A stretch of DNA of 64,000 bases from Patescibacteria group bacterium UBA1388 (GTDB lineage: Bacteria; Patescibacteriota; Microgenomatia; UBA1400; PJMF01). The position numbers were made by a program, and so were the translations under genes. The notes under the pieces were generated by a model. It saw only the letters and a program-made list of their open reading frames with translations, made no database searches and was not told the origin of the DNA. How positions within the stretch are numbered: the stretch's first letter is position 1; each line of letters starts with the position of its first letter. Positions 2,320-26,053 of this stretch are shown here, piece after piece. The stretch spans positions 4,720 to 68,719 of the forward strand of contig DBQS01000014.1 in NCBI GenBank assembly GCA_002305355.1. Direction: 5' to 3'.

Positions 2320-2383
2320 CAAGGAAGGTTTTAGTCAGAGATTTCGAATGATATTTTCCCCTTGAGCTTGCTATACTAAACTT

Positions 2384-5252: not shown

Positions 5253-5255
5253 AAT

Positions 5256-5762: not shown

Positions 5763-5768
5763 GTTAAG

Positions 5769-6212: not shown

Positions 6213-6235
6213 CATAATTTATATATTAGGAATAT

Positions 6236-6658: not shown

Positions 6659-6665
6659 GAATTAT

Positions 6666-7121
6666 ATGAACTGGAAAAATCAAAAAAGAAACAACGGTTT
6701 TACCTTGGTGGAGTTGTTAGTGGTGATGACCATTATTGTGGTTTTGGCTTCCGTGGGGTTAGTGAGTTATCGCAATGCTAGCATCACAGCAAGAGATGCC
6801 AAGAGAAAAGCAGATATCGAGGCAGTGAGACAAGCGCTAGTTCTGTATAAACAGGAAAATACGTTATACCCTCAGCCTAGTGAAACAGATCAGTTTCTGC
6901 GATTTACTAGTGTAGTTGGTACTTTAGTGAATAATGGATTTCTTTCAGCTCCAGGTCCAAGCGATCCAACGAGATATGCATATACAAGGAAAGATTCTGG
7001 TCAAGGATTTTGTGTTTGCGCTACCCTAGAGGGAACTAATAACAAAGGTAATGCAACTACCTCTAGTGGTAACTGTACTATTACTGGATCTGGCAATTTT
7101 TACTGCGCGAAGAATCCTTAA
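6666..7121 (+). CDS. Type IV pilin (prepilin; RNNG|FTLVELLVVMTIIVVLAS)
   Basis: It has the canonical prepilin N-terminus with Glu+5 and C-terminal cysteines. Confidence 0.8.
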   Translation: MNWKNQKRNNGFTLVELLVVMTIIVVLASVGLVSYRNASITARDAKRKADIEAVRQALVLYKQENTLYPQPSETDQFLRFTSVVGTLVNNGFLSAPGPSDPTRYAYTRKDSGQGFCVCATLEGTNNKGNATTSSGNCTITGSGNFYCAKNP

Positions 7122-7125
7122 TTTC

Positions 7126-7656
7126 ATGCATGCAATGCCCAAAATTCAACTTCCCTACTTCAAACAAACAGGCTTCACCCTAATTGAATTGTTAGTAGTG
7201 GTGGCGATTACTTCGATTGTGGTGGGTGGCTCCATAGCTGGGTTTACTACTTTTGCCAAAAAGCAGGAAGTTTTGACTGCGACGCAAGAAGTGCGGCAAT
7301 TGTTTGTGAGTGCTAAAACCAAGGCTCAGGTTCAAGAAACACCGGCAGCATGTGATGGGGATACCGCAGGCGAAAAGCCATTACAGGGTTATCAGGTAGT
7401 AAAAACAGGGTCAGTGATAAAAATACAGCCTTTGTGCGGAGACACTATTGATGCAGCAATTGTTCCAGCCTCTCCCGGAACGCATCCCTCTTTTACAATT
7501 CCAACGGGTGTTGATGTGAGCATGAATACTATCAAATTTTTCACACTGAATAATGGAGTATTTCCTGCATCCGGTCAAATAATTACAGTTTCGGGAAATA
7601 CAAAAACTTACACTTTTACGATCAGTACAGGAGGGGCAATATCGGATGTTCAATAA
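7126..7656 (+). CDS. Minor pilin / pseudopilin (KQTG|FTLIELLVVVAITSIVVGG)
   Basis: It has a prepilin N-terminus. The start is assigned to ATG 7126 just after the upstream stop (7119-7121), because the track's longer ORF overlaps the previous gene. Confidence 0.7.
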   Translation: MHAMPKIQLPYFKQTGFTLIELLVVVAITSIVVGGSIAGFTTFAKKQEVLTATQEVRQLFVSAKTKAQVQETPAACDGDTAGEKPLQGYQVVKTGSVIKIQPLCGDTIDAAIVPASPGTHPSFTIPTGVDVSMNTIKFFTLNNGVFPASGQIITVSGNTKTYTFTISTGGAISDVQ

Positions 7657-8086
7657 AACCAAAACAGCTGGTTTTACCCTGGTAGAAGTGCTGGTAGCAG
7701 TGGTGATTGTGGCGTTAGTGCTGACCGCCATTGCAGCGGCACTTTCATTCTCAGTCAAAAATAGCGCTCAGGCAGATTACAGGCAAGTGGCCACTAGATA
7801 TGCGCAAGACGCGATTGATATTATTAGGCAAAAGCGGGCAACTGATGGGTGGAACAGTTTTTATTCCACATATTTGCCACCAAGTGGACAAAGTAGATGC
7901 CTTCAAAGCAATGGCACATTAACACCCACTCCTTGTGCAGCCTGGAATACTAACGGCACAAACTATACGAGGGTAATTAAAGTGGACAAGACAACTGGTA
8001 CAGCGACCATCACTGTCACTGTGTCTTGGCAAGATGGCTCAGCCACGCGGGATGTAGAAGTCGTCCAAAAATTGTTTGATTATTAG
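7646..8086 (+). CDS. Minor pilin / pseudopilin (GspI/PilV-like; MFNKTKTAG|FTLVEVLVAVVIVAL)
   Basis: It has a short 9-aa leader and a G|FTLVE motif. It overlaps the upstream gene by 11 nt, which suggests translational coupling. Confidence 0.75.
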   Translation: MFNKTKTAGFTLVEVLVAVVIVALVLTAIAAALSFSVKNSAQADYRQVATRYAQDAIDIIRQKRATDGWNSFYSTYLPPSGQSRCLQSNGTLTPTPCAAWNTNGTNYTRVIKVDKTTGTATITVTVSWQDGSATRDVEVVQKLFDY

Positions 8087-8353
8087 ATTACTTCTCTCCC
8101 CTACCCGCACAAAATTTCCACTCAGCTATGTTTACTAATGGTCATCGACTAAGCAAAAATCAGCGGAAATGTGCATTTTATCCCGCCTTGGCGGAAAAAG
8201 CCGATCGTGAAATCGGGGATATAGGCCAAGAAAAGCCACGGCAGAATTCCGCCAAAAAAGCCACAAACCCCAACCGCAAGGTTGTGGGAGTGGCTTCATT
8301 TACAACTTGAAACCCAGAGCTCAAGCTAGTCTGCAAATCGATGGGGAGGTTAA

Positions 8354-8905
8354 TCACAAAGCTAAGTTGCGCACCTGGACGGTAGTTTGAAATTCTTGAG
8401 TCAAAGAATTGTCAAAATTATCAGTAATGTTGAGGCTAAAAGAAACTTTCACTTGAGCTCCAGTACAAGTAAAACCTAGTGTGTTAAGCACTGTTTTGGC
8501 AGTGATGACTTTGCCATCGATAGTTAACTGTGGGGGGGTGCCAATCGCTCGGATGGTGATTGCATCACCAGCATTATTTGTGAGCGTAAGCACACTCGAT
8601 GAGGTACATTTTGCTGTCTTTGCATTCCTAATTTCAAACTCAATTTGATGCATGGCAGTGTTGCCGTCAGACTGAATGACGCGCCGGGCGTTGGTGCGGG
8701 CGTTGCTCAATAAAAACGTCATAAAAATGGTGGAAACGGTGATCATCACCATGGCGGTGATACCCACCACCACCAGCAGCTCAATCAGGGTAAAACCGGC
8801 TTTTTTGGTGTGAACTATTCTCTGCTCTGGTTGCTGCAAATTCGCGGAGGTGCGCATAGATATCCCTGATATTCCTGATTCGTCCGATTCGAATGATTTA
8901 ACCAT
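8354..8905 (-). CDS. Pilin-like protein with long leader (…HTKKAG|FTLIELLVVVGITAMV), last gene of the giant-protein operon
   Basis: It has a prepilin-type N-terminus after a leader of 21-37 aa. It lies on the opposite strand to the main pilin cluster, and its start is 13 nt after the stop of the 1076-aa protein gene. Confidence 0.65.
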   Translation of the reverse strand: MVKSFESDESGISGISMRTSANLQQPEQRIVHTKKAGFTLIELLVVVGITAMVMITVSTIFMTFLLSNARTNARRVIQSDGNTAMHQIEFEIRNAKTAKCTSSSVLTLTNNAGDAITIRAIGTPPQLTIDGKVITAKTVLNTLGFTCTGAQVKVSFSLNITDNFDNSLTQEFQTTVQVRNLAL

Positions 8906-8920
8906 CCCAATCTACCCGCC

Positions 8921-11900
8921 TTAGTTAACTTCCTGCCAATTGAGTGTGGTGGCTTTGAGAATGTCTGGGGCGTTGGTCACAAAGTCTGGCCGGTGGATGA
9001 AGAGCTCAGAAGGGATGGTTTTGCTCTCAATACCATCGACTGCTCTTTTCAAATCAATGCCATTCCAGCCCACATAGCTGCCTTCCAGTACTAGTCTCTT
9101 GTCTAACCCTGATCCCTCGGATTCTGTAGTAATTTTACCATTGGCTACTACCACTGCCTCAATATTGGCTGTGGTATCTGTTTCATCATCGTTACCAACG
9201 TTGCTATCAATGATGACGTTACCACTGACAAAGAAAGCTAAGAAGCCAGAATTATCCACCTTGATCAATTTTTCTTCTGCAGCATCTTGGCTGAAAGTTA
9301 GGTTGCCATTGACGAAGATAATGACTTTATTGGTACCCACATCCCAGGTAGAGCTGGGATTAACAACAAGATCACCCTCTCTGTGGAATACTTTTGCGCC
9401 TTCTCTATCTGTGCCAGTGCTAATGGTTAGATTACTAATCGAGCTTGTATCAATCGTTTTTACTCCGGTTAAATCAACTTTTTGTTTAAAGTAATCAAAA
9501 TTTTCCAAAGTGACGCCAGCCTTCATATTAGCTCCTTTGGCATATTTGCTTTCGTTATTGTGCAGAGTCATGAATCCAAGAATGCTGGGCGGAGAAATGT
9601 TGCCATTGGTAATTGGTATGCCAGCAGATTTAGCTATGGAAAGCTGTGCTGTCCTAATTAAGTAGGGATAGCAGTTGTTGTCAGCATTACATGCAAAAAC
9701 ATCATCTGTAGGCAGATTAGAGCTTAAACTTGAGTGGCCGTAAACCAAACCACCCCAGGTTTGCCACCATGGCTCTGCTGTTAATGATGCAACGTCTCTT
9801 AGGTAAAAATGCGCATCATTTTTTGGTGGATTAATTGATCCAATATAGACACATGAATTGTCATAACCGGTAACTTTTAGCCCCTCTGTAGCAGACTCAG
9901 AATTGCAGCTAGCACAAACATAATCAGAATCTTTGAAATGCAAAATAGGCTGCAGTTCTGTAGCAGACTCAGGTACTTTAGCTGTATAGCTTGATGATTG
10001 AGTTTCAATGTCCTCTCCTTCGGTGGGAGGATTAAGAGTAACAGCCGCATCTAATGTGATGATGTTTTTTTCTGCATCTGTAGCGCAAGTATTGTTTGGG
10101 GTCACGTAGAAATTGCCGGAGATTTGAGCACTACTCAATGGCGCACAGACCTCAGATTCTTCATAATTTTCTAATCGACATCTCTTTCCTTCGTTTGCAG
10201 TTTGATAACAGGTGTAGTTTTGATTTCCATTATTAGTTGTGTCTTGACACTGCTCATCTGATGTGCAGAAATCATCACATTTAATTGAATAATCAGCAGG
10301 TTTACAATAAGGATCAGGTTCATTGACTCCCAATCGACACTTATCCCCTTGGCTGGCGGAGCACACAAACGCAGGATCACCTCCATTAGCTTTATCTTGG
10401 CACTGTGCATCACCAACTGGTCCTGGAGTACACTCGTCATTACATTTTATTGGAGTGTCTTCCGCTTTCGTACACGATAATGGCTTTAACTCAGTCTTGC
10501 CTGCTGGATGACCAGCGGTAGAATCTTGAAAATCAGATCCAACCCAGTCAATTTGGGCTAGCGGTTGGCCAGGACACTGATACTGCAAATTTGCTCCGAC
10601 AGCTAAATATGGGTTAAAACCATTGGTATTTAGATAATTAACAAGTTGATTAATTGAGCGGTTATTGCCACCAATGAGGACTGATGGATTCCAGGTAAAA
10701 TTGACAGTTGAGCCTGGCGAGTTAACCGTCTGGATAATATATCCAACTCCTCTGCCTTGCTCTCCATCATAAACATAATCTGGTGTACCCAAGTAGGTTT
10801 TAATGGCAGTAGCATTAGTATCACTATCCATGATGCTGATAAAAAGATTGGTTTGGGTTGAAGGGCATCCGCCCGTGGCTTCAGAACTGATATTTAGGTT
10901 GTAAGTGTAAGTCAGCCAGTTGTCACCAACATCTTTAGATTGCAGACTAGGATTGCAGAAGTGTGAAAGAGAAACAAGTTTGCCTCTCCCAGGAGGTGGT
11001 GTCGGGGGGCACCACTCCAACTTACACGAAGCATCGTTGCTTCTCTGACTCGCGTTTTCATCCCACACATAAGCTTTGTAAGTCGTGCCAGGCACCAATA
11101 CTAGTGGTTTGTTACGTGCCTCAGCTTGGCCAGTAAACTCACTTTTAACAATTGATAAGTCATTGCCATAAGTTGGCCACTTATTCCAAAAGTATCCAGT
11201 ATTGTTATCCCATGATCTACCCTCTTCGGTGATATTAAAAACGAGCCCCGAACCACTGCCCCCATCCCAAGTAAATTTTAATTTATTATCGGTTCTATTA
11301 GGAGTGGCACGATCAACACAGTCGGTGGCTGTACACCTGAGGTTTTTAGGAGGGGAGCCATCTCCTTCTATCAAGAAGTTAATATTGCCAATGTGATAGT
11401 GAAAATTATCATGTTTATAACCTGTTGGTGAATAGCCATTCCACTTTAACTTGATCTTGATTTGAGCTAGTTCACACCCATCGCTTCTTCCACAAACCGG
11501 CATATTTTCTAATGAGTAATAATGATATGGCATCCCATCACGCTTAAAAGTGCCTGCTTTTGTCAACTTTGAATTTTCATCAACTCCAGGGTCACCTGCA
11601 ACAACGGGGTGAGATCTTAAGCAGCCTTCATGATCTGGAATTAGGCTGTGTTGGGTATGAAATCTATTGGTAAAAGGTTCAGATCCTTGATTACCACATT
11701 TTTCATCTGGTCCAAGAGTATCGACATCCTCATAAACCCACTTATCACTCTCACCTGCTCGCTTTTGAGGTAATAGTTGGGTGTCAGATCCAAAGACGTT
11801 AACTAGATTACCATTGGTATCATATTTATACCCATAAATTTTGAAGTCGCCGCCTTCATCATGATCGTGAATGGTCAAATTTATACCCTTCACCAAAGTA

Positions 11901-12151
11901 TTCGTTCCGTCTGGTTGATCATCAGTTGCTTTGGGTACGTTGATAGTGATAAAGATAACGTCACTATCTCCGTCCACCGTTTGAGCTGGTGCTGCTGATG
12001 GACCACCGTGCCAAAGTGTACCCAACTTCTGGCTAATGTTCACATCTTGGTTATAGGTGATTGTTTTGACTACTTCTGCAGCACTGACAAGTGAAGTATG
12101 AGCCAAGAACAAACTGCCAAACAAAATAGTAAGATAGAGTTGTTTCAGCAT
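8921..12151 (-). CDS. Giant secreted Cys-rich protein (1076 aa) with signal peptide, Cys-rich modules and a conserved C-terminal domain shared with the 1410-aa paralog
   Basis: It has the Sec signal peptide MLKQLYLTILFGSLFLAHTSLVSA. It contains many regularly spaced Cys motifs (C-x-D-x-C-type modules around residues 560-660). The C-terminal roughly 300 aa align with the 13781..18013 product (WWQTWGGL…, …FVGWNG…, …RPDFVTNAPD…). Confidence 0.7.
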   Translation of the reverse strand: MLKQLYLTILFGSLFLAHTSLVSAAEVVKTITYNQDVNISQKLGTLWHGGPSAAPAQTVDGDSDVIFITINVPKATDDQPDGTNTLVKGINLTIHDHDEGGDFKIYGYKYDTNGNLVNVFGSDTQLLPQKRAGESDKWVYEDVDTLGPDEKCGNQGSEPFTNRFHTQHSLIPDHEGCLRSHPVVAGDPGVDENSKLTKAGTFKRDGMPYHYYSLENMPVCGRSDGCELAQIKIKLKWNGYSPTGYKHDNFHYHIGNINFLIEGDGSPPKNLRCTATDCVDRATPNRTDNKLKFTWDGGSGSGLVFNITEEGRSWDNNTGYFWNKWPTYGNDLSIVKSEFTGQAEARNKPLVLVPGTTYKAYVWDENASQRSNDASCKLEWCPPTPPPGRGKLVSLSHFCNPSLQSKDVGDNWLTYTYNLNISSEATGGCPSTQTNLFISIMDSDTNATAIKTYLGTPDYVYDGEQGRGVGYIIQTVNSPGSTVNFTWNPSVLIGGNNRSINQLVNYLNTNGFNPYLAVGANLQYQCPGQPLAQIDWVGSDFQDSTAGHPAGKTELKPLSCTKAEDTPIKCNDECTPGPVGDAQCQDKANGGDPAFVCSASQGDKCRLGVNEPDPYCKPADYSIKCDDFCTSDEQCQDTTNNGNQNYTCYQTANEGKRCRLENYEESEVCAPLSSAQISGNFYVTPNNTCATDAEKNIITLDAAVTLNPPTEGEDIETQSSSYTAKVPESATELQPILHFKDSDYVCASCNSESATEGLKVTGYDNSCVYIGSINPPKNDAHFYLRDVASLTAEPWWQTWGGLVYGHSSLSSNLPTDDVFACNADNNCYPYLIRTAQLSIAKSAGIPITNGNISPPSILGFMTLHNNESKYAKGANMKAGVTLENFDYFKQKVDLTGVKTIDTSSISNLTISTGTDREGAKVFHREGDLVVNPSSTWDVGTNKVIIFVNGNLTFSQDAAEEKLIKVDNSGFLAFFVSGNVIIDSNVGNDDETDTTANIEAVVVANGKITTESEGSGLDKRLVLEGSYVGWNGIDLKRAVDGIESKTIPSELFIHRPDFVTNAPDILKATTLNWQEVN

Positions 12152-12154
12152 ATG

Positions 12155-13678
12155 CTATTCAATCCAGGCCCTAACAAAAGGTGCTTTTGCTACAAATTGA
12201 CTCGAGTTAATAGTTGTACCAGAATTTATGTCGATTTCTGTTGAGGTTACAACTTGGCCGAATGAGGTATCTGAATCCAGTGCTTGGTCGTTGTTGAGTG
12301 AAATAAGCATCGGGTTAGCTTCATCAGAAAAGACCACGACTGCGCCTAGGTCAGATGACAAAGTGGATAACAATTGTCCACTATTTGTATAAAATGCCAC
12401 TTGCTGCTCTCCTTCTTTAAAAGTGATCAGAGCAAAATAACGGTTATCTGCAGACCACACTATATTGGCAACACTTGTTTGACCAGGTAAATTAATGGTG
12501 AAATCTTTCCCATCTATCTTGGGTTTGTAGGTTTTAAAGTTGAGTAATTGGCCATTTTGGAGAGCAAAATGAGTACCCCCATGTGAGTTGATTAGGTTGG
12601 TTGAATCTGCGTTAAGCACACTGGTGACGTCTTTGGAAATAGTATATGTGATAATTTCTTGATTGATGATAATTGATGGGTCAATTGGTTCATCCTCATT
12701 TGCTGACTCCACAGGGATTTCTACTACCAATCTCCTATCCATAAATACATCTTTTTCATCAAAATGTAGCAAAATTAATTTTTCAGCATCAATTTGAGTT
12801 AGTTTTGTGAGTTGAAAGTTATCTGGATCAAGAGTTAACAAATTATATTGGCGCAAGCCGTCCTCATTTTTTCCATTAATGGTGCTTAATAAAACTTCTG
12901 TGCCATCTTTATTCCACAGGGTTGCATCAATTATTGATGAACCGCCCTTATCAAGTAATTCATTTTCTTGCAAATAGAATAATTTTTGATTTTTTAGATT
13001 GAGCAGGAAGTAATGATATTTTGGGCCGGTACTCAACTGCTCTGTGCTGCTAATAAAAAATATGTCATGCGATTGATTGGGTTTCACAGTAAATACATTG
13101 CCAGGGATAGCTGCGGTAAATTTATCAACTGGGCTTAATTTTGAGGTCTTAATATCAAATTGTTGCAAATATCCATCTGAGACAAGCAAAAGAGACCCTC
13201 TCAGGTCATTTTTTGTGATGGCTACGTTATTACTTTGATTAAATTGCAAGTCAACGATTTTGGGTATTTGCAGTGATATGGAGTTCCTAAACATATACCC
13301 CCCCACAACTATCAAGATAATCCCCAAGCTAGCGAACATGATTAATAGTGGTGCATTTTTGGCAAACTTGAATCGCGGCCAGCGACGCTTTTTACGTGGC
13401 GAGCCAATCACCAGCGGTGGGTGCTTGGGGTGGTGGGTGGCAGTGGGGTGTGTGACCGTGTGGTGAGGGCGATGGCTAGTGGGTGACGACACTTTTTTGA
13501 AATCAGGGGCTGCTCCAGTTATTGTCTCATTTTCAGTTTGGGAAGCTGCCTGCTTATCCTTTGATGACTGATGCTTACTCTCCTCTTTCTTGTCTTTTTT
13601 CGACTTAAAATGAGTCCAGTGTGCCGGGTGGATATCGGTATGATTAAGTGTTGGTTCGTAATCTGTCATAGCAAACAA
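12155..13678 (-). CDS. Single-pass membrane protein with His-rich cytoplasmic N-terminal region and beta-propeller-like (TolB/WD40-like) ectodomain
   Basis: The N-terminal 110 aa are rich in His, Lys and Thr (HRPHHTVTHPTATHHPKHPP). One TM segment follows (LLIMFASLGIILIVVGGYMF). The remainder has repeated beta-rich segments. The gene is tightly coupled to its neighbours, with a 3-nt gap to the next gene. Confidence 0.55.
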   Translation of the reverse strand: MFAMTDYEPTLNHTDIHPAHWTHFKSKKDKKEESKHQSSKDKQAASQTENETITGAAPDFKKVSSPTSHRPHHTVTHPTATHHPKHPPLVIGSPRKKRRWPRFKFAKNAPLLIMFASLGIILIVVGGYMFRNSISLQIPKIVDLQFNQSNNVAITKNDLRGSLLLVSDGYLQQFDIKTSKLSPVDKFTAAIPGNVFTVKPNQSHDIFFISSTEQLSTGPKYHYFLLNLKNQKLFYLQENELLDKGGSSIIDATLWNKDGTEVLLSTINGKNEDGLRQYNLLTLDPDNFQLTKLTQIDAEKLILLHFDEKDVFMDRRLVVEIPVESANEDEPIDPSIIINQEIITYTISKDVTSVLNADSTNLINSHGGTHFALQNGQLLNFKTYKPKIDGKDFTINLPGQTSVANIVWSADNRYFALITFKEGEQQVAFYTNSGQLLSTLSSDLGAVVVFSDEANPMLISLNNDQALDSDTSFGQVVTSTEIDINSGTTINSSQFVAKAPFVRAWIE

Positions 13679-13780
13679 CCCTCACAAAATTGGGGTACTA
13701 CCAGAATACAGGAATTTTTGCCTGGTCGTCAAGTTGGAGAAATGGGGATATGGGGAACGGGCGGGAATTAAAGCTACCGC

Positions 13781-16700
13781 TTAGTTGGCTTCTTTCCAGG
13801 TGAGGTCTGGTGTTTTGATGGCTTCTGGGGTGTTGGCCACTAGGTCTGGACGGAAGAAGAATTGCTCGGTGGGTGACACGGCGTTTTTCTGCCGGGCAAG
13901 CGGGTCAGTAGTAGTATTGTTTTCGAATTTTCTAGGTAAATTCACTCCATTCCAACCTACGAATGTGCCTCCAGCGACAAATTTTCTATTCATTGTGGCT
14001 GTGCCTGAAGTATCATAAGATTCAATGGTCAAATTGTCTGAAGCGATAAAAATACCTTCGATGAGTTGACCTCTGTCAGCAGTGATCATCTTAGAGTTGT
14101 TGGTGTCTAAACAAGTCAGACCAGCGGGGTCAGAGCCGCAGTCGTAACCAATATTTTTATCAAAGGTAATATCGCCGCTGGCCACGACCATGAGGAAACC
14201 GCCACTGGCGATATCAATTGAGTTTTTGCCCGCCATCGTAAGTCTTGTATTGGGTTGCCTTACCCTTAGATTACCGTCAATCACTAATATGTATTTACTA
14301 TTTGTGTCGATATTCCACGGGTTACTATAATCCCCAACTATCAAGTCAACCGTTCCCGAAGAACCTCTAGTTGCTGGCCTGAGGTAATGGACATACACAG
14401 TTTTTGTGGTTTCTCCATCATTGAATGGAGTGATAGGACTATTTGGAGTGCTTGAGTTGTTGAATCTGGCTTCGTCTCCACTTCTCGGTGTTACTGTCTG
14501 CAGATCGAGCAACTTATAAAAATAATCATAATCTTGTCTGTCGGTGCCAGTAGCGGGGGGAACTCCAACACCTAGGGCACCTGTATCAGACGGTTCTCTG
14601 TTAGTCCACCAGCTTCCGTTAAGAGTAATGATGGCATCATCATTTGTAACTGGTATGCCCGCTTGCTTATCATTTAAGTCTGGATTAATAACTGTGGGGT
14701 GGGCATTAATAAAGCTGTGATCTTTGCACCACGCTTTAGCTCCGCAGTTAGCATTGGGTGTACCACTATCATTAATTGGTATAGCACTACTCAAGCTATT
14801 ATTTCCAAAAATCAGCCCCCCGACCGTCTGCCACCAGGAGTCGTAAATTAGGTTGGCCTTGACGACGTAGAATTTAGCTGACCCTGGAGAGGTTACATTT
14901 TGACTAGGATCCTGTGCCCGGCATTCATAATTACTCGAGCCGGTATTGCATGATGCACAGGCATAATGTTCATCCTCATCTAGACCAGTGTTGTTAATCA
15001 GCAAATCTGCCCAGATGTTGCCATTCCAACCGGTAGTATACGAAGGTAAATAAGGAATGGATGTAATATTAGCCACATTGCCACTTATATTGCTACTACG
15101 GGACCCACCCCCAATATCCATTGAATCCCAGCTAACTTTTACGCTGCCATTTATGCCAGGATTAGGAGTTATTCCGCCCGTGCATAAATTTGGATTTGTA
15201 ACTTCACTTATGCTGGCCGAGACGGGACACTTTAACTGATAATTTAAAACGAACCAATCATCAGACTTAAGAGCATCTCCACAGCTTGATGTGATTGACC
15301 TGGCTGCAATCACTAAATTATTACTTAGATCAGGCTTAGTATTAAACGTAAAATCTTTATATGTCTCACTTTCCGAAATTGTCTGCACTAACTTTTGAAT
15401 ATTTCCTGGATCGTCAGTATTAACATACTCAGCATATGCACTATCTGGATTCCCGTATTCAGAAGCTTTGTATACAAGTACTTCCAATGAAGTTGTACTT
15501 GTTCCTTGAGGCACAACCCTGACGGTGAATGTGTCATCAGTTTCATCTCCATCTAAATCGCAGTATGTGCGACTAGTCACACTTGCGTTGGGAAGTTCTG
15601 GTGGTGTGTTGATACATTCTTGAAGTTGAAACTCAACATTGCAGCTCTCGGCAGCATATGGAAAAACGCTACCACAAGTGCCACTGGGGTTGCCAGTACA
15701 AACCGGTGAGCCATCATCATATAAATTTGCAGCTAGAATATATGTTCCTGGACTGCTTGTGGCCGGAATTGTGACATCAAAGGCATTAACAGCAGTGCTC
15801 GAATCTTCTGCCAAGGGAAATGGCTTGGTAACTCCGTCAACTTTGGGAAGCCAATTGCCTGAAGCACAATAATTAGCTGTTTTTGGATGATAAAAAAGTT
15901 CAATTTTATCTGGATCTGGATCTGTTGATAACTCAAAATTATCGTAGTAAATATAAGTAGTGTTATTTGAAACATTATCTGGAGCGCGCAAAATAATTTG
16001 GATTTTGGAGCTATCATTATAATTGGGGTCACCCATGGGATAATCTGAAAATGTTGCTTTGCCAACAAAAGTTTGCCACTGATTTGTGAGGGTAATAGTG
16101 TTTTCTTCTCTACCATTGACGTTGAACAAAACTTGTTCATAGTGTTCTGGCGAATCAATTTCTCTAACAGGTGTTTCGTCTAAATCAACATATTTCTTTC
16201 TTACCAAAGCAATATTAGAAACTTTCCTGATAGTGTCTGCATTTCCGTCAATTCTAGCTTCAAATTTAATTTGAAAAGTTTTTCCAGAGACATTTTTTCT
16301 TGTTTCAATATAGTTAGAATTTACAAAAGCATTAATTGACTCTTTTTTTCTGGCAAATCGAAGAACATTGCCAGGTGAAGATGGGCAGTTGGTGCCGCAA
16401 GCCACAATCTCCATTTTTTCGATGCCGCCACTGGGTACTCTTCCACCATAAGCTGGTTGCCAGCCATCAACCTTGTAAAGAGTTTGAATGTTTTCGTCTT
16501 CAAAACTTTGATTATAAAACTCGAAATAATCATGTACATTAACGCCACTGACGGTTACTCTATACTCAGTTCCTTGATCAAGTACGATAGGAGCGTCATT
16601 TGCTGTATTCTGTATCTCACTTGTTATCCTATTAAAAAATGAAAAATCACCGCACTTTGGATCTTGTTTAATTTCTGTCCAGTAATGTATAGGTTGATAC

Positions 16701-18013
16701 CAAGTAGCTTGCTTGATCCAACAAATTTCACTTTCTTTCACTGTTGACTCTTCTCCAAAATCTCTTCTATTCCACGCCCACCCAACATTAAAGTCATTTT
16801 TTTTGGCTTCACCGGTGTTAGTTGTCCAGTTGAAATGTGTCATAGGGACTTGGATATAAGCTTGACCATACCAATGACTTACTTCCCTGATTTCATCGTC
16901 CCAACTGACAATACGTTGTTCAGCCTCACTCCAAACTCTTCTATACCAAGCATCATGTTCGTAGCCGGCATAATCACCCACCCATTTCCCGTCCTCAAAT
17001 TTATATGGCGTGCAAGTTCCTCCATTGGCATCAATCCGAAACACATTATGATCATCTGCCATTAAAGCTGAAGCGCAGTTAATAAAGGGAATAAACCCAA
17101 AAGGATTGGGATAACCATATGGTGCTCTAGGGAAAGGGTTCTCATTAAATTTATCTCTTGGATAGACGGTATATCCCTCTGATTCTGCAATAGCTTTAAT
17201 TTCACTTCGATCGGTGAAAACCATTGGCAGCTTATTTTTACCCATGTAAACATATAAGGTCTCGGTGTCTTCATTTTCTACAACATAATTTTGGACATAA
17301 CCCGCTTTGAATCCTGCACCCAAGGTGATTTTGTCTCCTGGAGAGGTAAAGGTATAAGTTGTTTTTCCTGGGCTGGCGTGAGACATTCGCTCCTCTGGAG
17401 TACTACCAGAAGGTGGCGCCCATGTTTCCCAGACGCGCGTAGTGCCTGGCCAAATAAAGGCGTCATAGGAATTGTCTACCTTTCCACCTTCTTTATTACA
17501 ATCATCGTCCCAATCCTCTACATGTTCTCCGGTTGATCCACCAGTTGGTCCACAATTTAAAGCACAACTATAATAATCTGCATAAGGTCCCCAACTATCT
17601 GAATAACAACCGGCTCCTGCTAAACAGCTGTAACCAGTTCTTGGTTCTTCCTCTGGGGGTGGGGGAGGTGGTACGTATTGCGGAGGTGGGTAGACTGCAG
17701 AACAGTTATTGCTACCCTCTGTGCCTTCAAAACAGAACGCATTACAACCACTACCAGATTTTCGGCAGGCTTCATAAGTGCTGCCAGTGACGACTTGTTT
17801 ACACACGCATGAGCCGCCAGGGCAACCATTGCCGCAGGAATCTCCATCCTTTGTTCCACCTTCGCACTCACATTGTTCTCCCTTCGTAAGACACTCAACT
17901 CCTCCTGCGCAATAAAACTGAGCTTGAACCTTGGTCGCGCTTGACACAATTGCCAGCAAGCTTGCCATCATCGCCAAAACAGAAAAGAATAATAAAAATT
18001 TATGATTATTCAT
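13781..18013 (-). CDS. Giant secreted Cys-rich protein (1410 aa), paralog of the 1076-aa protein, with Cys/Gly-rich N-terminal modules and a poly-Pro linker
   Basis: It has the signal peptide MNNHKFLLFFSVLAMMASLLAIVSS. The N-terminus is Cys-rich (CAGGVECLTKGEQCECEGG…), followed by a PPPQYVPPPPPPEEEP linker. The C-terminal roughly 300 aa are homologous to the 8921..12151 product. Confidence 0.7.
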   Translation of the reverse strand: MNNHKFLLFFSVLAMMASLLAIVSSATKVQAQFYCAGGVECLTKGEQCECEGGTKDGDSCGNGCPGGSCVCKQVVTGSTYEACRKSGSGCNAFCFEGTEGSNNCSAVYPPPQYVPPPPPPEEEPRTGYSCLAGAGCYSDSWGPYADYYSCALNCGPTGGSTGEHVEDWDDDCNKEGGKVDNSYDAFIWPGTTRVWETWAPPSGSTPEERMSHASPGKTTYTFTSPGDKITLGAGFKAGYVQNYVVENEDTETLYVYMGKNKLPMVFTDRSEIKAIAESEGYTVYPRDKFNENPFPRAPYGYPNPFGFIPFINCASALMADDHNVFRIDANGGTCTPYKFEDGKWVGDYAGYEHDAWYRRVWSEAEQRIVSWDDEIREVSHWYGQAYIQVPMTHFNWTTNTGEAKKNDFNVGWAWNRRDFGEESTVKESEICWIKQATWYQPIHYWTEIKQDPKCGDFSFFNRITSEIQNTANDAPIVLDQGTEYRVTVSGVNVHDYFEFYNQSFEDENIQTLYKVDGWQPAYGGRVPSGGIEKMEIVACGTNCPSSPGNVLRFARKKESINAFVNSNYIETRKNVSGKTFQIKFEARIDGNADTIRKVSNIALVRKKYVDLDETPVREIDSPEHYEQVLFNVNGREENTITLTNQWQTFVGKATFSDYPMGDPNYNDSSKIQIILRAPDNVSNNTTYIYYDNFELSTDPDPDKIELFYHPKTANYCASGNWLPKVDGVTKPFPLAEDSSTAVNAFDVTIPATSSPGTYILAANLYDDGSPVCTGNPSGTCGSVFPYAAESCNVEFQLQECINTPPELPNASVTSRTYCDLDGDETDDTFTVRVVPQGTSTTSLEVLVYKASEYGNPDSAYAEYVNTDDPGNIQKLVQTISESETYKDFTFNTKPDLSNNLVIAARSITSSCGDALKSDDWFVLNYQLKCPVSASISEVTNPNLCTGGITPNPGINGSVKVSWDSMDIGGGSRSSNISGNVANITSIPYLPSYTTGWNGNIWADLLINNTGLDEDEHYACASCNTGSSNYECRAQDPSQNVTSPGSAKFYVVKANLIYDSWWQTVGGLIFGNNSLSSAIPINDSGTPNANCGAKAWCKDHSFINAHPTVINPDLNDKQAGIPVTNDDAIITLNGSWWTNREPSDTGALGVGVPPATGTDRQDYDYFYKLLDLQTVTPRSGDEARFNNSSTPNSPITPFNDGETTKTVYVHYLRPATRGSSGTVDLIVGDYSNPWNIDTNSKYILVIDGNLRVRQPNTRLTMAGKNSIDIASGGFLMVVASGDITFDKNIGYDCGSDPAGLTCLDTNNSKMITADRGQLIEGIFIASDNLTIESYDTSGTATMNRKFVAGGTFVGWNGVNLPRKFENNTTTDPLARQKNAVSPTEQFFFRPDLVANTPEAIKTPDLTWKEAN

Positions 18014-18599
18014 AAAAAATAAAATAATCGTTATTTTCTATTGCATCCATAACAATATCCAACACCACCTCCCTAGCTTTTTCGTATTGAGGTTGGTATA
18101 TTTCATCGCTAGACCAATTAACTTGTTTCCAGTACTCAGCAGCATAGAGGAGGGATAACAAATAAGTCCTGTGAAGATCAAAAAACTGTAGTTCTTCGCT
18201 ACTGTCAGGATTAATATATAAGTATAAATTTACTTCTTCATCGGCATTTTTGAACCAAAAGCCGCTCGAAACTTCATCATTGGGTTCAATATAGCTAAAG
18301 ACAATATTTTCTGGCGAGGTAGTAATGGTAATTTGTTGTTTCAGATCAAGAATAGGGGTTTGATCTAAGAAGGTGCGCACCTCAGCATGGTTGAAAATCT
18401 TTTTATCAATACGATATGTTTTATCATTTAATTGATTTTCAACGATCTGATAATTACTTTTTGGAGGACTGAAGAATTTTTCAATAGTTTTGTTTAATTG
18501 AGTAATATCGGCATTATCAAGATAATAAATTAAGCCGCCAGCAACTGCGATCAATACAGATAAGATGCCTAGAATAATTAATGGTTTATGATGCAGCAC
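18006..18599 (-). CDS. Small membrane-anchored hypothetical protein (197 aa)
   Basis: It has an N-terminal TM (LIILGILSVLIAVAGGLIYYL). It overlaps the start of the 1410-aa gene by 8 nt, consistent with operon membership. Confidence 0.5.
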   Translation of the reverse strand: MLHHKPLIILGILSVLIAVAGGLIYYLDNADITQLNKTIEKFFSPPKSNYQIVENQLNDKTYRIDKKIFNHAEVRTFLDQTPILDLKQQITITTSPENIVFSYIEPNDEVSSGFWFKNADEEVNLYLYINPDSSEELQFFDLHRTYLLSLLYAAEYWKQVNWSSDEIYQPQYEKAREVVLDIVMDAIENNDYFIFYE

Positions 18600-18662
18600 A
18601 CAGCCATCATATTATAAATTTACAATTATGCCAACTCATAGGGGTCAGCGTGTATTAAGTGA

Positions 18663-21110
18663 TTACTCAATATATACATTTCCAGCGCTATCTACAAGTT
18701 TTGTGATGAGTGGATTGAAAGTGTATCTATTACCATCTTTATCTTTTACCAATTCAACCATGGGGTCTAGAAGTGGTGTAAAGACCGGATAATCATAAAA
18801 TTCTGCATTAACTTTGTCTGGTTGAATTCCTGCTTCTTCTCTCAAGAACATGCTTGTCGCGCTGATGAATGATGATGCAATTCCATATGGCCCAGGCTTT
18901 CCAAGAGTGACATGAAAAATTAATTGACTTTCAACGACTTGTGCAAAATTACTGGGCAAATCGAGTACTTTATTGGGTCCTAGATACCATTCCCCCGGAT
19001 GAATTTGATTCTCAGTTTCTGGTGTTCTGAATATAACAAATTTTACAGGTTTAGACCTGTCAATCACAATTTCTTTTCTTTTTCCCTGAATAGTGTAAAT
19101 AGATCCTTCAACAGAAACATTAGGACTTTGAGCTAAGATCTCAAAAAAATTATTCATCATCCTATCTACGAGGATAGCGCCATCTATATCTGAATATTCT
19201 TGAAAATCCTCATTTGGTCCAATATAACCAAGTTCTTTGTAATCTTTTATGAGCTCAGCAGTAGGATTGAAGTCCCACCTCATTTGATGTTGTGATAGCG
19301 GCATTTTTTTGAGAGAGTTTGGTAGAATTTCTAGCAAGCCAATAGGTTCTTCAATCATTCTCACTCTGTATGGATGAATGTTGTTGTATCCCGCGTAACT
19401 ACAAATTTGGGTTTGAAGGGTTTCAAATTGCTTAATAATCCAACCACTCCGGTAATCAAGATTATCCCACTCCATTTCTATTTGTTTTTCACCTGTTTGC
19501 AATTGAGCAAAAAGTTTATTTCCTATCATCCAAAGTTTAAAATCATCTTGACTAAATATTTGTTTTTCTGCTTTTCCAGTAGTTTTATTTTCTACCAGTA
19601 ACTCTTTGGGAAGGTTAGTTATTGCTTCCTTTACAATTTCATTTTCTGGGAAGGCTGCCAGAAACTCGGCAGCGGTGTATCGTTTAGCACTCACCTCCTC
19701 CATCGTTTTCCATTTGCCATTGTCAAATCTGCCTAGTTCATTGCCATTGGTGTCAAGCGCGATGGGACCTTTTTCACTATCTATATAAATACTGACTGCT
19801 GAACCGGGAAACTTCTCTACAGCAAGTGCTAATAACTGGTCAGGTTCAATCTTGCCACCCATACCAGTAGAAGCCTCATCTTCATCATTCGTACTTGCAT
19901 ACTTTTCTAAATTTGAATTAATTTCTTGCCCAGTAGTCACACTCACATCCTTGCTCTCTTGTTTTGTCAAGTTTGGATCGGCAGAAATGTAGGCTTGTCC
20001 AACACCCTCTAGATTCACGATATACCAGCCATCTTCTTCACCAACTATCTCTACTCTATCTCCTGCTTTAAGTGAACCTACCACAGTATGATTTGTGCCA
20101 GGACCAGACCTGACATTGAGAGCTGCTGCTAAAATGACTGCTTCTCTGACTGTTTTGGTAATAGTAACTTGTTCTTTTTCTTCTAAGTTCCTTTTTGGCA
20201 CCCACACATATTTAACTTCTGGTTCTTCGTTAGATTCAGCAGTAAGCTCATCATCAACAGGTTTGTCATCATCAGCTTGTGGTGCGGTATCATCAGGTGT
20301 TAAAACTACTTTTACAGCAATAAACTCTTCACCGTTAATGATCATTGATGTTGCAGACTGAATTGAATCTCCTTCTTTAAACTCTACATCTGCCATGACT
20401 GTGGTAGCATCATATGGAGAAAGTAGTGGTAAAGTATCAATCAACACGCGGTAACTTTTAATAACTGGTGATACTTCTAATTTTGACTGCGCAACTGCTG
20501 ATTCTTCTTGCCCTGCTTCTTCCTGATTGCTCTCACTTACTGGCACTGCATCCTCGCCATTAAGTTGATCACTTGAATCAATTGGTTCTGGTGTGGGTGT
20601 AGCATTAAGCAGTGGATTTTCTCCTGCTTGAATGGTGGCGGTAGGGGTGGGGACACCACTTTGAGCGGAGGCTTCGCGAGGAAGACTAGACATCAGCATC
20701 ACAGCGATGGCAACTGCAGCTGCTGCTGAAGTAACTTGTTTGTATTTTTCAGTCAAGAACAAGAATAGCCTGCCTCTATTAGCTTCTAGTCCAGTTGGAA
20801 TATCAACTTGACCGACCTGATCCATGATGGCTCGTGCTTGTTCTGGGGTAATAGCGGCCACTTCAGCAATAGTATGGTTAGGGGAAAGAGTTCGTTCAAT
20901 AATGGCTCTGAATTCTTTGATAACTTCTGGTGAAATTGATGAAATTTCTGCCAACCTAAGCTGCTCTTCTCTTCTTGGTGAAGATTCACCAACTTCTCTC
21001 CTGCCAGTTAACGACTGATTAATAGAGCTGCGAAGATTCTGTAAGTTATGTAGCTGCCCTTCTCTATCCGGATTTCCAGATCTTCTTTCGTTTTCTAAAA
21101 GTGCATCCAT
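18663..21110 (-). CDS. Type II membrane protein (815 aa) with bacterial SH3 (SH3b) domain and large extracellular region
   Basis: A cytoplasmic N-terminal region of about 125 aa precedes a TM segment (VTSAAAAVAIAVMLMSSL). The motif 'LNVRSGPGTNHTVVGSLKAGDRVEIVGEEDGWYIVNLEG' is a classic SH3b domain. It is the first gene of the minus-strand operon. Confidence 0.6.
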   Translation of the reverse strand: MDALLENERRSGNPDREGQLHNLQNLRSSINQSLTGRREVGESSPRREEQLRLAEISSISPEVIKEFRAIIERTLSPNHTIAEVAAITPEQARAIMDQVGQVDIPTGLEANRGRLFLFLTEKYKQVTSAAAAVAIAVMLMSSLPREASAQSGVPTPTATIQAGENPLLNATPTPEPIDSSDQLNGEDAVPVSESNQEEAGQEESAVAQSKLEVSPVIKSYRVLIDTLPLLSPYDATTVMADVEFKEGDSIQSATSMIINGEEFIAVKVVLTPDDTAPQADDDKPVDDELTAESNEEPEVKYVWVPKRNLEEKEQVTITKTVREAVILAAALNVRSGPGTNHTVVGSLKAGDRVEIVGEEDGWYIVNLEGVGQAYISADPNLTKQESKDVSVTTGQEINSNLEKYASTNDEDEASTGMGGKIEPDQLLALAVEKFPGSAVSIYIDSEKGPIALDTNGNELGRFDNGKWKTMEEVSAKRYTAAEFLAAFPENEIVKEAITNLPKELLVENKTTGKAEKQIFSQDDFKLWMIGNKLFAQLQTGEKQIEMEWDNLDYRSGWIIKQFETLQTQICSYAGYNNIHPYRVRMIEEPIGLLEILPNSLKKMPLSQHQMRWDFNPTAELIKDYKELGYIGPNEDFQEYSDIDGAILVDRMMNNFFEILAQSPNVSVEGSIYTIQGKRKEIVIDRSKPVKFVIFRTPETENQIHPGEWYLGPNKVLDLPSNFAQVVESQLIFHVTLGKPGPYGIASSFISATSMFLREEAGIQPDKVNAEFYDYPVFTPLLDPMVELVKDKDGNRYTFNPLITKLVDSAGNVYIE

Positions 21111-21332
21111 AAATATCCTGTAATTGAAGTATTAGTTACTATTATTAAGCCGTTATTTGCTTCAAGTCAATGTATTTTAATTGTATCTTATAATAATTGC
21201 AATGTGTATCAAATACATACTTGAGAACAGTGTCGAGTTGGCTCATAATCTCTTAAAAATTACTCAACAGAGAATTTGCAGCCGGTGTACAATACCCAGC
21301 ACAATTATTATAGATTTTGATAGAATTTTTAG

Positions 21333-22202: not shown

Positions 22203-22226
22203 GTTACATGATAGAATGCAAGAATC

Positions 22227-23384: not shown

Positions 23385-23477
23385 TGCGGCGATTGGGAAA
23401 TATGAACGACCAACTTTCCACTTGCACTTGTTGCTTCAACTACGTTATTATGGAACAGTTATGGATTAGTTTTTCCT

Positions 23478-24293: not shown

Positions 24294-24323
24294 TAGGGAT
24301 ATTAATAGGATTAAGGAAAAGTC

Positions 24324-25334: not shown

Positions 25335-25346
25335 AGAGGATTATTC

Positions 25347-26006: not shown

Positions 26007-26053
26007 GACGTCAGCGAAATTTAGATTAAGATTGAGGAAATACTAAAAAACAT

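Follow-up and report, generated by a model that had tools for sequence, protein, structure and literature searches.

A strain-variable gene cassette encoding Cys-rich secreted proteins with a predicted ComZ-like solenoid in a type IV pilus locus of Patescibacteria

Results

Organization of the cassette and its flanks

The window, which is the whole stretch of 64,000 nucleotides analysed, shows a cassette of six genes, gA to gF, on the minus strand between positions 8354 and 21110, with all six ORFs found at these coordinates. The gaps between successive genes from gA to gF are 63, -8, 102, 3 and 15 nt, in agreement with an earlier note on this DNA that described six co-directional, tightly spaced or overlapping genes, and the gene order is kept in three related loci (L002, L096 and L099). 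A sigma-70-like match, TTGACT-18-AATAAT (21141..21170, minus strand; 10/12 positions in a consensus scan), lies upstream of gA as a candidate operon promoter, and the same kind of scan gives further promoter-like sites upstream of gB and gD.

One flank contains the prepilin peptidase gene pilD (2384..3202, plus strand; Pfam A24_N_bact and Peptidase_A24), a gene encoding a 329-aa PKD-like membrane protein with Cys residues (4263..5252, plus strand; PKD_4, E = 2e-4), and six type IV pilin or minor-pilin genes (5256..8086, plus strand; N_methyl in 6/6). The PKD-like gene is kept between pilD and the pilins, with orthologs in L004, L098 and L099 (E = 1e-61 to 1e-76). The other flank contains the assembly genes pilX-like, pilM, pilN-like and pilO-like (23478..26959, plus strand), with matches to PilX_N (8.5e-6) and PilM_2 (1.6e-40); the PilO and T2SSM_b matches of the pilO-like gene are weak, and the pilN-like gene, which has no Pfam match, is named from its position alone. 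The cassette had been described as embedded inside the type IV pilus (T4P) locus. It does lie between the pilin and the pilX-pilMNO blocks, but on the strand opposite to both, convergent with the pilins and divergent from the pilX side, and three non-pilus genes, encoding a methyltransferase and two nucleoside-deoxyribosyltransferase-like proteins, separate gA from pilX.

The giant proteins gC and gE and their shared module

Two genes of the cassette encode giant proteins that, as the earlier note had claimed, are secreted and Cys-rich: gC (13781..18013, minus strand; 1410 aa, 39 Cys) and gE (8921..12151, minus strand; 1076 aa, 30 Cys) both show a Sec-type signal peptide and a Cys content of about 2.8%. 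In gC the signal peptide is followed by an N-terminal Cys-knot, with 17 Cys among the first ~175 aa, then by a middle part that varies and by a C-terminal module. gE shows a Cys-free N-terminal part of about 150 aa, a Cys-dense part at aa ~560-670 and the C-terminal module, which ends in a conserved F..RPD..P..W.E tail. The module spans aa 1013-1410 of gC (13784..14977, minus strand; HMM E = 7.7e-90), with WWQ, GWNG and RPD motifs, and aa 740-1076 of gE (8924..9934, minus strand). Both segments align by BLASTP with E = 3e-32 and 28% identity, WWQT, GWNG and RPD included, a likeness far above chance, and the giants are true paralogs in this module, which is about 340-400 aa long rather than the ~300 aa first proposed. 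HMM searches found it in no other ORF of the window.

The module had been regarded as assignable to no known family, and at the sequence level this holds: gC and gE have no Pfam match at E<=0.1 and no NCBIfam match, and the module has no PDB sequence match even at E<=10. Pfam finds no N_methyl, PilX_N or any other pilin domain in either giant, and the class III motif is present in the first 80 aa of 0/150 best module-family members. Orthologs of the gE type are present in L002, L096, L098 and L099. The gC module is 71-94% identical in amino acids to its L002 ortholog and the rest of gC 16-42%, a pattern in keeping with a protein whose head diversifies while its docking end is conserved.

Membrane proteins and the terminal pilin

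The other products of the cassette are three membrane proteins and a minor-pilin-like protein. gA (18663..21110, minus strand) encodes an 815-aa type II membrane protein with a cytoplasmic N-terminus, one transmembrane segment (aa ~125-145), an acidic linker, an SH3b domain (SH3_3, aa 330-377, E = 1.1e-12) and a variable extracellular C-terminal domain of ~440 aa; its L002 homolog matches aa 396-802. gB (18006..18599, minus strand) encodes a 197-aa single-pass protein with an N-terminal membrane anchor, its stop overlaps the start of gC by 8 nt, and L002 carries an ortholog (E = 4e-48). gD (12155..13678, minus strand), 3 nt upstream of gE, encodes a 507-aa single-pass protein with a His-rich cytoplasmic N-terminal part of ~100 aa, a transmembrane segment at aa ~105-130 and a variable extracellular domain. 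Its N-terminal 100 aa are 88% identical in L002 and 99% in a sister strain, against 20-44% for the ectodomain, and L099 contains a homolog (L099_381, E = 3.8e-11). The label propeller-like, previously given to gD, is tentative, Pfam giving a sub-threshold eIF2A match (E = 0.015) only.

gF (8354..8905, minus strand), 15 nt downstream of gE, encodes a 183-aa minor-pilin-like protein (N_methyl, aa 34-57, E = 1.4e-6) carrying a class III signal, KKAG/FTLIELLVVVGITAMVMITV (G/FTLIE; G at -1, a hydrophobic residue at +1, Glu at +5 and a hydrophobic helix). The leader is 36 aa long from the first ATG and 20 aa from Met17, the start called in a JGI record. In NCBIfam, gF matches TIGR02532 (E = 1.2e-3) and, weakly, ComGF, GspJ, GspH and prepilin-peptidase-dependent proteins.

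A strain-variable island

Comparison of the window by blastn with the contig Ga0265424_1000605 of a sister strain, located via PilM and the cluster member P0181, shows a hypervariable mosaic island of ~13.7 kb (5950..19691). Outside the island identity is 97%. The island contains minor pilins, gF, gE, gD, gC, gB and the C-terminal half of gA, where the breakpoint falls at position 19691 (~aa 473). Within it, high identity is limited to the blocks 8027-9009, 10100-11294 and 13283-13894, with a few short or weaker matches otherwise. The pilin block, most of which is taken in by the island from ~5950, is 69-84% identical in nucleotides, against 97% in the flanks. Minor pilins and cassette thus diverge together in the sister strain, which could reflect one recombination tract, not co-adaptation. 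The conserved gC-gD intergenic block was also considered as a structured RNA, and this was discarded with a fold z-score of +0.93.

Module family and gene neighbourhoods

A word-indexed protein search with the gE module alone gave one weak match, and a 31-sequence profile search was dominated by one subfamily; the full size emerged only with exhaustive HMMER (E<=1e-3), which shows a family of 3082 clusters at 50% identity. All named matches belong to Patescibacteria, from groundwater, sediment and wastewater. In the best 150 members of the family the module is C-terminal, and the majority have a signal peptide and are Cys-rich; the N-terminal Cys-rich cap is also present in 72/100 full-length family representatives. 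A polymorphic-toxin reading was rejected, since a conserved C-terminus and a variable N-terminus are the reverse of such toxins.

The cluster type of the window adjoins T4P pilins in 7/7 informative loci (the window, L096, L003, L004, L005, L098 and L099), and in every locus with sequence past the module gene a gF-like pilin comes next: it lies 3-15 nt past the gE-type gene in L003, L004 and L005, and directly 3' of it in L002, L096, L098 and L099. Other arrangements place the module gene within or beside T4P genes. In L063, of the Microgenomates, it is part of one co-directional T4P operon, pilins-[567 aa]-[module]-[223 aa]-pilX-pilM; in L020, L024 and L071 it has pilX-pilM on one side and the pilins on the other; and in L045 and L078 it diverges from a run of PilB-, PilT- and PilC-sized genes that continues with a pilin and pilD. 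Family-wide, T4P genes are found at <=10 kb in 7/23 informative distinct loci, against roughly 5-10% for a random gene of a ~1 Mb genome, an estimate rather than a computed control; in 16/23 loci none is so near. A link with pilin genes therefore stands for all seven window-type loci, but homologs at loci without pilus genes, which the earlier note had named as a refuter, do occur in part, 16 family loci being free of T4P genes at this distance.

In the wider family the downstream genes are mostly mutually unrelated and non-pilin, the few nameable ones being housekeeping-looking. The commonest neighbour is a membrane-anchored protein encoded just upstream, present at 32 of the 47 informative genes: 26 show a small anchor in the position of gB and six a large one, and in 19 of the 32 the stop codon overlaps the start of the module gene. 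Pairwise BLAST, phmmer, MAFFT, HMM and hhalign comparisons of these partners detected homology only among close orthologs, so only position and topology are common to them and they are not claimed as one family.

Predicted fold of the module

Structure prediction for the module gives a triangular beta-solenoid like that of ice-binding proteins (IBP-like), as in ComZ and in ice-binding-like adhesion domains. The model, whose first ~150 residues have low-to-moderate confidence, has its best matches among ice-binding proteins, with a score slightly above that of ComZ, which is within the top five and gives the longest alignment of these. An AF2 model built on an alignment of three sequences (pLDDT 42.6) was set aside. 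Among the comparisons proposed earlier, the PilY1/PilC type and a generic beta-helix did not hold; the predicted fold is of the IBP/ComZ kind, which had not been foreseen.

The Pfam ice-binding model DUF3494 (Ice_binding, which we take to be PF11999) is matched by none of the module-family members scanned. DUF7305 is matched by 5/31 members, the best with E = 1.5e-4 and none reaching the gathering score of 27 bits (member P0034, 16.2 bits, aa 240-330); the window proteins match neither model in the Pfam scan. Compared with both, the module adds an N-terminal part of ~150 aa with an invariant WWQ, plus the conserved tail. A phage tailspike or tail-fibre origin was also discarded, BFVD giving weak DUF3494 matches only.

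Discussion

PilY1/PilC proteins of Proteobacteria and Myxococcus are large non-pilins that bear a Sec signal peptide and combine an adhesive N-terminal region, which varies, with a C-terminal domain that is conserved. Their genes lie among those of minor pilins and are followed by one, in P. aeruginosa in the order pilY1, pilY2, pilE, and sets of minor pilins plus PilY1 are strain-variable cassettes. gC and gE resemble them in being large Sec-exported non-pilins, encoded beside minor pilins, whose N-terminus varies and whose C-terminus is conserved. The C-terminal domain of PilY1/PilC is a beta-propeller (Neisseria_PilC, presumably PF05567), whereas gC and gE show no PilC-family Pfam match and a predicted beta-solenoid; giants and PilY1/PilC are not homologous and are alike in their logic alone.

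ComZ of Thermus thermophilus (PDB 6qvi) and cyanobacterial PilX show the same IBP-like triangular solenoid as predicted for the module, and for both a place at the pilus tip, or a role as its plug, has been proposed (PMC6561018; bioRxiv 10.64898/2026.02.12.705559). The setting is also alike, a T4P minor-pilin locus in which the gene has a partner minor pilin next to it: pilA2 for comZ, gF for gE. The solenoid of ComZ and PilX interrupts a pilin fold, between the last two strands, and the protein has an N-terminal pilin helix; in gC and gE, by contrast, it would form the C-terminus of a Sec-exported Cys-rich protein of 1000-1400 aa without pilin helix. Neither ComZ nor PilX shows sequence-level similarity to the module, and hhalign gives no profile similarity between it and the PilX proteins of the Candidate Phyla Radiation (CPR). 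ComZ binds DNA; the likeness of gC and gE to it is at the level of the predicted fold only.

On this evidence we tentatively read the cassette, with a little less than an even chance, as a pilus accessory adhesin set, PilY1-like in logic and ComZ-like in fold. It would be a strain-variable accessory cassette in the T4P locus of a Patescibacterium that is of Microgenomates type and stands close to Pacebacteria. gC and gE would be Sec-exported, disulfide-rich surface proteins made of a signal peptide, a variable Cys-rich binding region and the conserved module. Through the solenoid and its invariant C-terminal tail the giant would dock on the priming or tip complex of minor pilins, most likely in direct contact with the neighbouring pilin gF, and the pilus would then display the variable head, which would attach to a host or partner cell. 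The logic would be that of PilY1/PilC, executed with a ComZ-type fold supplied in trans, and gA, gB and gD, with their hypervariable ectodomains, may serve the heads as cognate partners, in assembly, in holding them or as co-receptors. Given a predicted solenoid like that of proposed pilus-tip proteins, the giants may well be exchangeable heads with which the cell grips its host. The earlier suggestion of a pilus-associated surface or adhesin system gains from paralogy, secretion, the predicted solenoid fold and the constant pilin synteny of the window-type loci, and loses from the rarity of nearby T4P genes in the family. A broader version, which we consider distinctly unlikely, is that Patescibacteria have turned the plug and adhesin of the pilus tip into a split, trans-acting system, with the ComZ-like module as a universal adaptor loading many heads on one pilus tip; the heads would be encoded both in the T4P locus and in scattered loci with their own membrane-anchored partners.

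A pilus-independent display is somewhat unlikely. The giants would then be cell-body adhesins or surface-layer parts held by the upstream membrane proteins (gB for gC, gD for gE, and gA via its SH3b domain), the solenoid would bind a conserved envelope component such as wall, lipid or S-layer, and T4P proximity would reflect no more than the clustering of host-attachment genes in a single variable island. The upstream membrane partner, so frequent and so often overlapping in the family, could itself be the anchor; 16 of the 23 loci are without T4P genes, the wider-family downstream genes are mostly mutually unrelated, gA bears a wall-binding SH3b domain, and non-pilus surface and adhesion proteins also use the IBP-like fold. 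The partners, however, share no detectable sequence similarity; with a conserved module and hypervariable partners, binding between them is unlikely. The co-directional position of the module gene within the T4P operon of L063, the gF-like pilin invariably found after the gE-type gene of the window subfamily, and the rank and alignment length of ComZ among the fold matches also argue for the pilus.

Other functions are far less probable. If the T4P-like machine were a type II-secretion-like pseudopilus, the giants could be cargo pushed through the wall, a very unlikely reading to which the Sec signal peptides, the location within the pilin/pilMNO locus and the weak matches of gF to the pseudopilins GspH and GspJ would lend themselves. 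Those matches, however, fall mainly on the N-terminal helix, the conserved C-terminal solenoid and the many T4P-distant loci would be left unexplained, and Patescibacteria are established to have neither an outer membrane nor the secretin PilQ (bioRxiv 10.1101/335083). An enzymatic beta-helix that degrades polysaccharide or wall, of the lyase or tailspike-depolymerase kind, and attacks the host envelope is highly improbable. The predicted fold is that of the ComZ solenoid and ice-binding-like adhesion domains and not that of an enzyme family, a match of which kind the earlier note had named among its refuters. A true ice-binding or antifreeze domain is barely credible. Its attraction lies in the top fold matches, which are ice-binding proteins, but DUF3494 is unmatched in the scans, the family comes from Patescibacteria of groundwater, sediment and wastewater, and the module is C-terminal in giant Cys-rich proteins of pilus or membrane-partner operons.

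Cultivated Patescibacteria live attached to host cells. In Saccharibacteria, type IV pili are needed for host attachment (PMC9894109, PMC12206443). The module defines a large family of secreted Cys-rich proteins with a predicted docking-type C-terminal solenoid and without a Pfam or NCBIfam model; no description of it was found in the literature on Patescibacteria, T4P, Cys-rich proteins, DUF7305 and DUF3494. In the lineage of the window the giants share a recombining strain-variable island with minor pilins, which makes them concrete candidates for host-range determinants. The preferred reading of a pilus accessory adhesin set would extend the emerging idea that beta-solenoids take the place of PilY1 at pilus tips outside Proteobacteria. 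If the trans-acting version were true, one machine would carry a swappable, recombining repertoire of host-range determinants, and the more than 3000 clusters at 50% identity would represent a main host-recognition system of the CPR.

Three further systems were compared. The Pam pilus system of CPR bacteria (bioRxiv 10.64898/2026.03.03.709456), as far as seen in the part of that report consulted, comprises pilins of the donor-strand-exchange type together with chaperone-like proteins, encoded in the neighbourhood of an ATP synthase, and the locus is dissimilar. The tapirins of Caldicellulosiruptor show a much weaker structural likeness; they belong to another beta-helix class, lack the module and are not Cys-rich giants. 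The Cys-rich proteins of Peregrinibacteria, also of the CPR, are, by comparison of descriptions, large, signal-peptide-bearing and strain-variable, with a proposed attachment role, in a report that defined neither a conserved C-terminal module nor a link to pilus genes (PMC4736985).

Organization of the cluster and its flanking regions

The cluster located between positions 8354 and 21110 contains six ORFs, named gA to gF, all on the minus strand and exactly where the earlier note had placed them, with gaps from gA to gF of 63, -8, 102, 3 and 15 nt. gA (18663-21110) encodes an 815-aa protein with a single hydrophobic span and a Pfam SH3b domain at aa 330-377 (E=1.1e-12), and gB (18006-18599) encodes a 197-aa protein, also with a single hydrophobic span. 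The two giants, gC (13781-18013; 1410 aa) and gE (8921-12151; 1076 aa), show a Sec-type signal peptide and 39 and 30 Cys, respectively (~2.8% in both), in agreement with their previous description as secreted Cys-rich proteins. gD (12155-13678) encodes a 507-aa protein with a single hydrophobic span and His-rich first ~100 residues, and gF (8354-8905) a 183-aa protein with a Pfam prepilin N-methylation motif at aa 34-57 (G|FTLIE) and weak similarity to ComGF- and GspJ-type pilins. The Pfam search gave no match for gB, gC and gE and only a sub-threshold eIF2A hit for gD (E=0.015); the NCBIfam and PDB-sequence searches with gC and gE gave no match.

The gene content of the flanks supports the proposed location between two type IV pilus (T4P) blocks, both on the plus strand: one (2384-8086) contains a prepilin peptidase, a PKD-like protein and, at 5256-8086, six N_methyl pilins, and the other (23478-26959) contains PilX_N (23478-24293), PilM, PilN-like and PilO-like genes. 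Since the cluster is on the minus strand, it is convergent with the pilins. Between gA and pilX there are a methyltransferase gene and two adjacent paralogs of nucleoside-2-deoxyribosyltransferase-like type (22227-22802 and 22803-23384). Both paralogs match a single ORF of locus L006 (1-342), directly upstream of a membrane-protein/membrane-protein/module triad. The PKD-like gene (4263-5252) encodes a Cys-containing membrane protein of ~320 aa, which is not among the recognised T4P components and is kept in this lineage between pilD and the pilin block, with orthologs in L004 (13950-14903), L098 (6438-7403) and L099 (13474-14424) (E=1e-61 to 1e-76). An IS element with an rve integrase core is upstream of pilD, and a BrnT/BrnA toxin-antitoxin pair separates pilD from the PKD-like gene and the pilins (1696-2319 and 3667-4195); the sister strain has both too, and the HTH part of the IS element is annotated in its locus L096.

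The shared C-terminal module and its family

Residues 740-1076 of gE and 1013-1410 of gC align with E=3e-32, so the homology claimed for the two giants in this C-terminal module is real. A word-indexed protein search with the module gave almost no matches, and an exhaustive HMMER profile search against 1.84 billion cluster representatives gave 3082 proteins at E<=1e-3, of which 2207 reach E<=1e-10 and 422 reach E<=1e-30. Among the best 150 of the 3082 matches, nearly all have the module at the C-terminus or a few residues from it. These 150 proteins range from 205 to 1603 aa, with a median of 3.5% Cys; 102 have a signal-peptide-like N-terminus and none shows a class III pilin signal. At least six Cys are found within the first 80 mature residues in 72 of 100 full-length members, whose Cys-rich N-termini often open ...AQ|xCxGxxxC, as in gC. 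One member, P0163 (774 aa), has a thrombospondin type-1 repeat (PF00090) N-terminal to the module, and others have fn3 or Big_2 domains: the heads are made up of adhesion-type domains.

The Pfam scan of the family showed no model at threshold, and the view that the module is assignable to no known family held in the Pfam, NCBIfam and PDB-sequence searches. DUF7305 is found sub-threshold in 5 of 31 members and, in the one member examined (P0034), lies inside the module core. Literature searches retrieved no description of the family. The named members in the protein search are Patescibacteria, and the genome loci extend the range to Microgenomates lineages and a few contigs of Chloroflexota-labelled MAGs. 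L009, from a 1.13-Mb contig labelled Chloroflexia, shows the module gene (8428-10414) in two ORFs of 497 and 122 aa, which probably reflects a frameshift or a pseudogene. The MAG labels are Dehalococcoidia for L013 and Anaerolineales for L021; either the family may reach beyond Patescibacteria or these loci may be mis-binned.

Predicted fold and comparison with known systems

The AF2 model of the module, built from a 31-sequence alignment, has a pLDDT of 79.3 and a pTM of 0.78, with confidence >87 at residues ~150-300 and lower in the first ~150. The competence pilin-like protein ComZ carries a solenoid like that of ice-binding proteins (IBP) inserted in its pilin fold. It binds PilA2, the pilin encoded next to it, and the authors of that study argue for a pilus-tip position (PMC6561018). 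Cyanobacterial PilX proteins contain the same kind of solenoid and were proposed as a tip plug in place of PilY1 (bioRxiv 10.64898/2026.02.12.705559). The module is thus predicted to have the fold of a known pilus-tip element, although in a different context: here the solenoid is the C-terminus of a Sec-exported non-pilin giant, with neither a pilin helix nor an insertion within a pilin fold. The cassette is also similar in logic to PilY1/PilC, but shows no propeller. Because it lacks the defining feature sets of both PilY1/PilC and ComZ/PilX, and the module does not reach the DUF3494 and DUF7305 HMM thresholds, we rate it as a family of trans-encoded solenoid proteins specific to Patescibacteria, putatively adhesins.

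Gene neighbourhoods across the family

The comparison included 24 genome loci, 64 metagenome loci and several contigs retrieved by exact protein look-up. L002 shows the gene order of the window, gA-gB-gC-gD-gE-gF. In L099/L100, a gA-like and a gB-like gene are followed by genes for a module protein of 1315 aa, a homolog of gD (E=3.8e-11), a second module protein (1050 aa) and a gF-like pilin; the set is convergent with the pilin, PKD-like and PilD genes. The same arrangement, whole or partial, is found in L003, L004, L005, L098 and the sister-strain locus L096. A gF-like pilin is directly 3' of the gE-type gene in every window-type locus with downstream sequence. Loci L063, L020, L024, L071, L045 and L078 come from more distant Microgenomates. 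In L063 the module gene is co-directional within a single T4P operon: a pilin gene and pilD are followed by eight pilin genes, then the module gene stands between a 567-aa gene before it and a 223-aa gene after it, and pilX, pilM and two small TM-protein genes at the pilN/pilO position come next. L020, L024 and L071 have the module gene between pilX-pilM and pilins, and L045 and L078 show a membrane-protein/membrane-protein/module triad divergent from PilB-, PilT- and PilC-sized genes that are followed by a pilin and pilD.

The proposed link of these genes to pilin clusters holds for the window-type subfamily, where a pilin block adjoins all seven loci with usable flank (window counted), but not family-wide: among 23 distinct loci (near-duplicates removed, at least 10 kb of total flank), T4P genes are within 10 kb in seven and none is within that distance in 16. 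The association is clearly not obligatory; the 7/23 exceeds the 5-10% that would roughly be expected in a genome of ~1 Mb, itself an estimate rather than a computed control.

Downstream genes are otherwise heterogeneous, mostly without mutual relation, and the most regular neighbour is the upstream gene. Of 47 distinct module genes that are informative here, 26 follow a gene for an N-terminally anchored membrane protein of small size (<=280 aa), six more follow one for a larger membrane-anchored protein, and eight follow an ORF without a clear TM, at least two of these with Tat or lipobox-like signals. Stop and start overlap (-4 to -14 nt) in 19 of 32 partner-module pairs, as in gB-gC. The window holds both kinds of pair (gB+gC and gD+gE) plus the pilin gF. 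Compared with each other across loci, the upstream partners showed no detectable sequence similarity. Within L014 (7171-8526 and 8533-9204; E=1e-60) and L017 (7094-7795 and 7841-8668; E=1e-10) the two upstream membrane proteins are mutually paralogous, which hints that gA-like and gB-like partners can arise through duplication.

Strain-level variation

The JGI contig Ga0265424_1000605 of the sister strain (L090, L096) encodes a PilM identical to that of the window, and shows 97% DNA identity to window positions 1-5950 and 19691-35350. Several further strains of the species are present in JGI samples 3300026159-3300026181. The intervening island (5950-19691) spans five of the six pilins, gF, gE, gD, gC, gB and the C-terminal ~340 aa of gA. 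It contains only three high-identity blocks, 8027-9009 (92%), 10100-11294 (91%) and 13283-13894 (98%); the pilin region aligns weakly (69-84%), and elsewhere there are three short matches of 55-90 nt. Protein identity is 25% for gB, 37% for gC, 98% for gF, 52% for gD (99% in the N-terminal 100 aa) and 64% for gE (95-97% in the middle, 32-69% in the module). The more distant L002 has a different pattern of conserved blocks: a 1586-bp block of 88% nt identity (L002 5404-6954, window 13288-14872), with unalignable surroundings, takes in the gC module and the 102-nt intergenic region and extends into gD as far as codon ~130, and a 469-bp block (75%) runs from the end of gE into the start of gF.

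These comparisons make the island a recombining mosaic, with fast turnover of its exposed parts. Some junction blocks (the end of a module plus the start of the next gene) are exchanged or preserved. The one between the gC module and the start of gD, with 98% identity in the sister strain, has the look of a recombination anchor, and its intergenic part gave an unremarkable result in RNA folding. The His-rich cytoplasmic residues 1-100 of gD are 88-99% kept in orthologs and the ectodomain is 20-44% identical, which points to metal binding or to a conserved partner in the cytoplasm. In Pseudomonas aeruginosa, minor-pilin/PilY1 cassettes differ by strain, and the island is similar to them in logic. 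The large Cys-rich proteins of Peregrinibacteria have likewise been reported to vary between strains (PMC4736985), and the island matches this too.

Proposed function and alternatives

On the observed anatomy, family, predicted fold, synteny and variation, the best-supported reading, put tentatively at somewhat less than an even chance, is that gC and gE are pilus-accessory adhesins. The docking, adhesion and partner roles that we infer for the gC/gE cassette would be distributed as follows: the solenoid and the invariant C-terminal tail of the module (F..RPD..P..W.E) would dock on a minor-pilin tip or priming complex, the minor pilin gF being the likely direct partner, and host binding would fall to the variable Cys-rich head. 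As the module is kept across thousands of otherwise unrelated proteins, it should bind something equally conserved, and T4P is among the few conserved surface machines of this group (bioRxiv 10.1101/335083). Given that the upstream membrane proteins are hypervariable and change together with the heads, it is more plausible that they serve these than that they serve the module.

In a less probable but substantial alternative, the cell body would display the giants by way of membrane partners or the wall, and T4P proximity would reflect only the clustering of attachment genes. The absence of T4P genes from 16/23 loci and the regular upstream membrane partner fit this, but it does not account well for the module gene inside the L063 operon, the constant gE-gF pairing or the lack of conservation among the partners themselves. 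Other roles are improbable: export of the giants as T2SS-like cargo is unlikely, an enzymatic beta-helix slightly more so, and true ice binding by the module very improbable indeed. The family is a good candidate for host-recognition determinants of these episymbionts, because it is large, has neither a Pfam or NCBIfam entry nor a description in the literature searched, and is carried here in a strain-variable island adjoining minor pilins.

Other features of the window and related loci

The nearest named relatives of the window TyrRS belong to Candidatus Pacebacteria, Woesebacteria and 'Patescibacteria group' (65-68% identity), P0228 being one Pacebacteria-like match. With the CAP-domain gene described below, this identifies the organism as a Patescibacterium of Microgenomates type. 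L002, L003, L004, L005, L010, L012, L014 and L017-L019 are Patescibacteria-type loci from MAGs titled 'uncultured Pseudomonadales', 'Gammaproteobacteria' or 'Limisphaerales', probably through a wrong taxonomic label or mis-binning. The RNase P RNA (bacterial class A, 52847-53230) scores 104.4 bits, barely over the gathering score of 100, which is consistent with a divergent Patescibacteria RNase P. The product of a gene at 54998-55840 contains a CAP (cysteine-rich secretory protein) domain; one family of membrane-associated CAP-domain proteins is reported to be nearly exclusive to CPR (bioRxiv 10.1101/335083).
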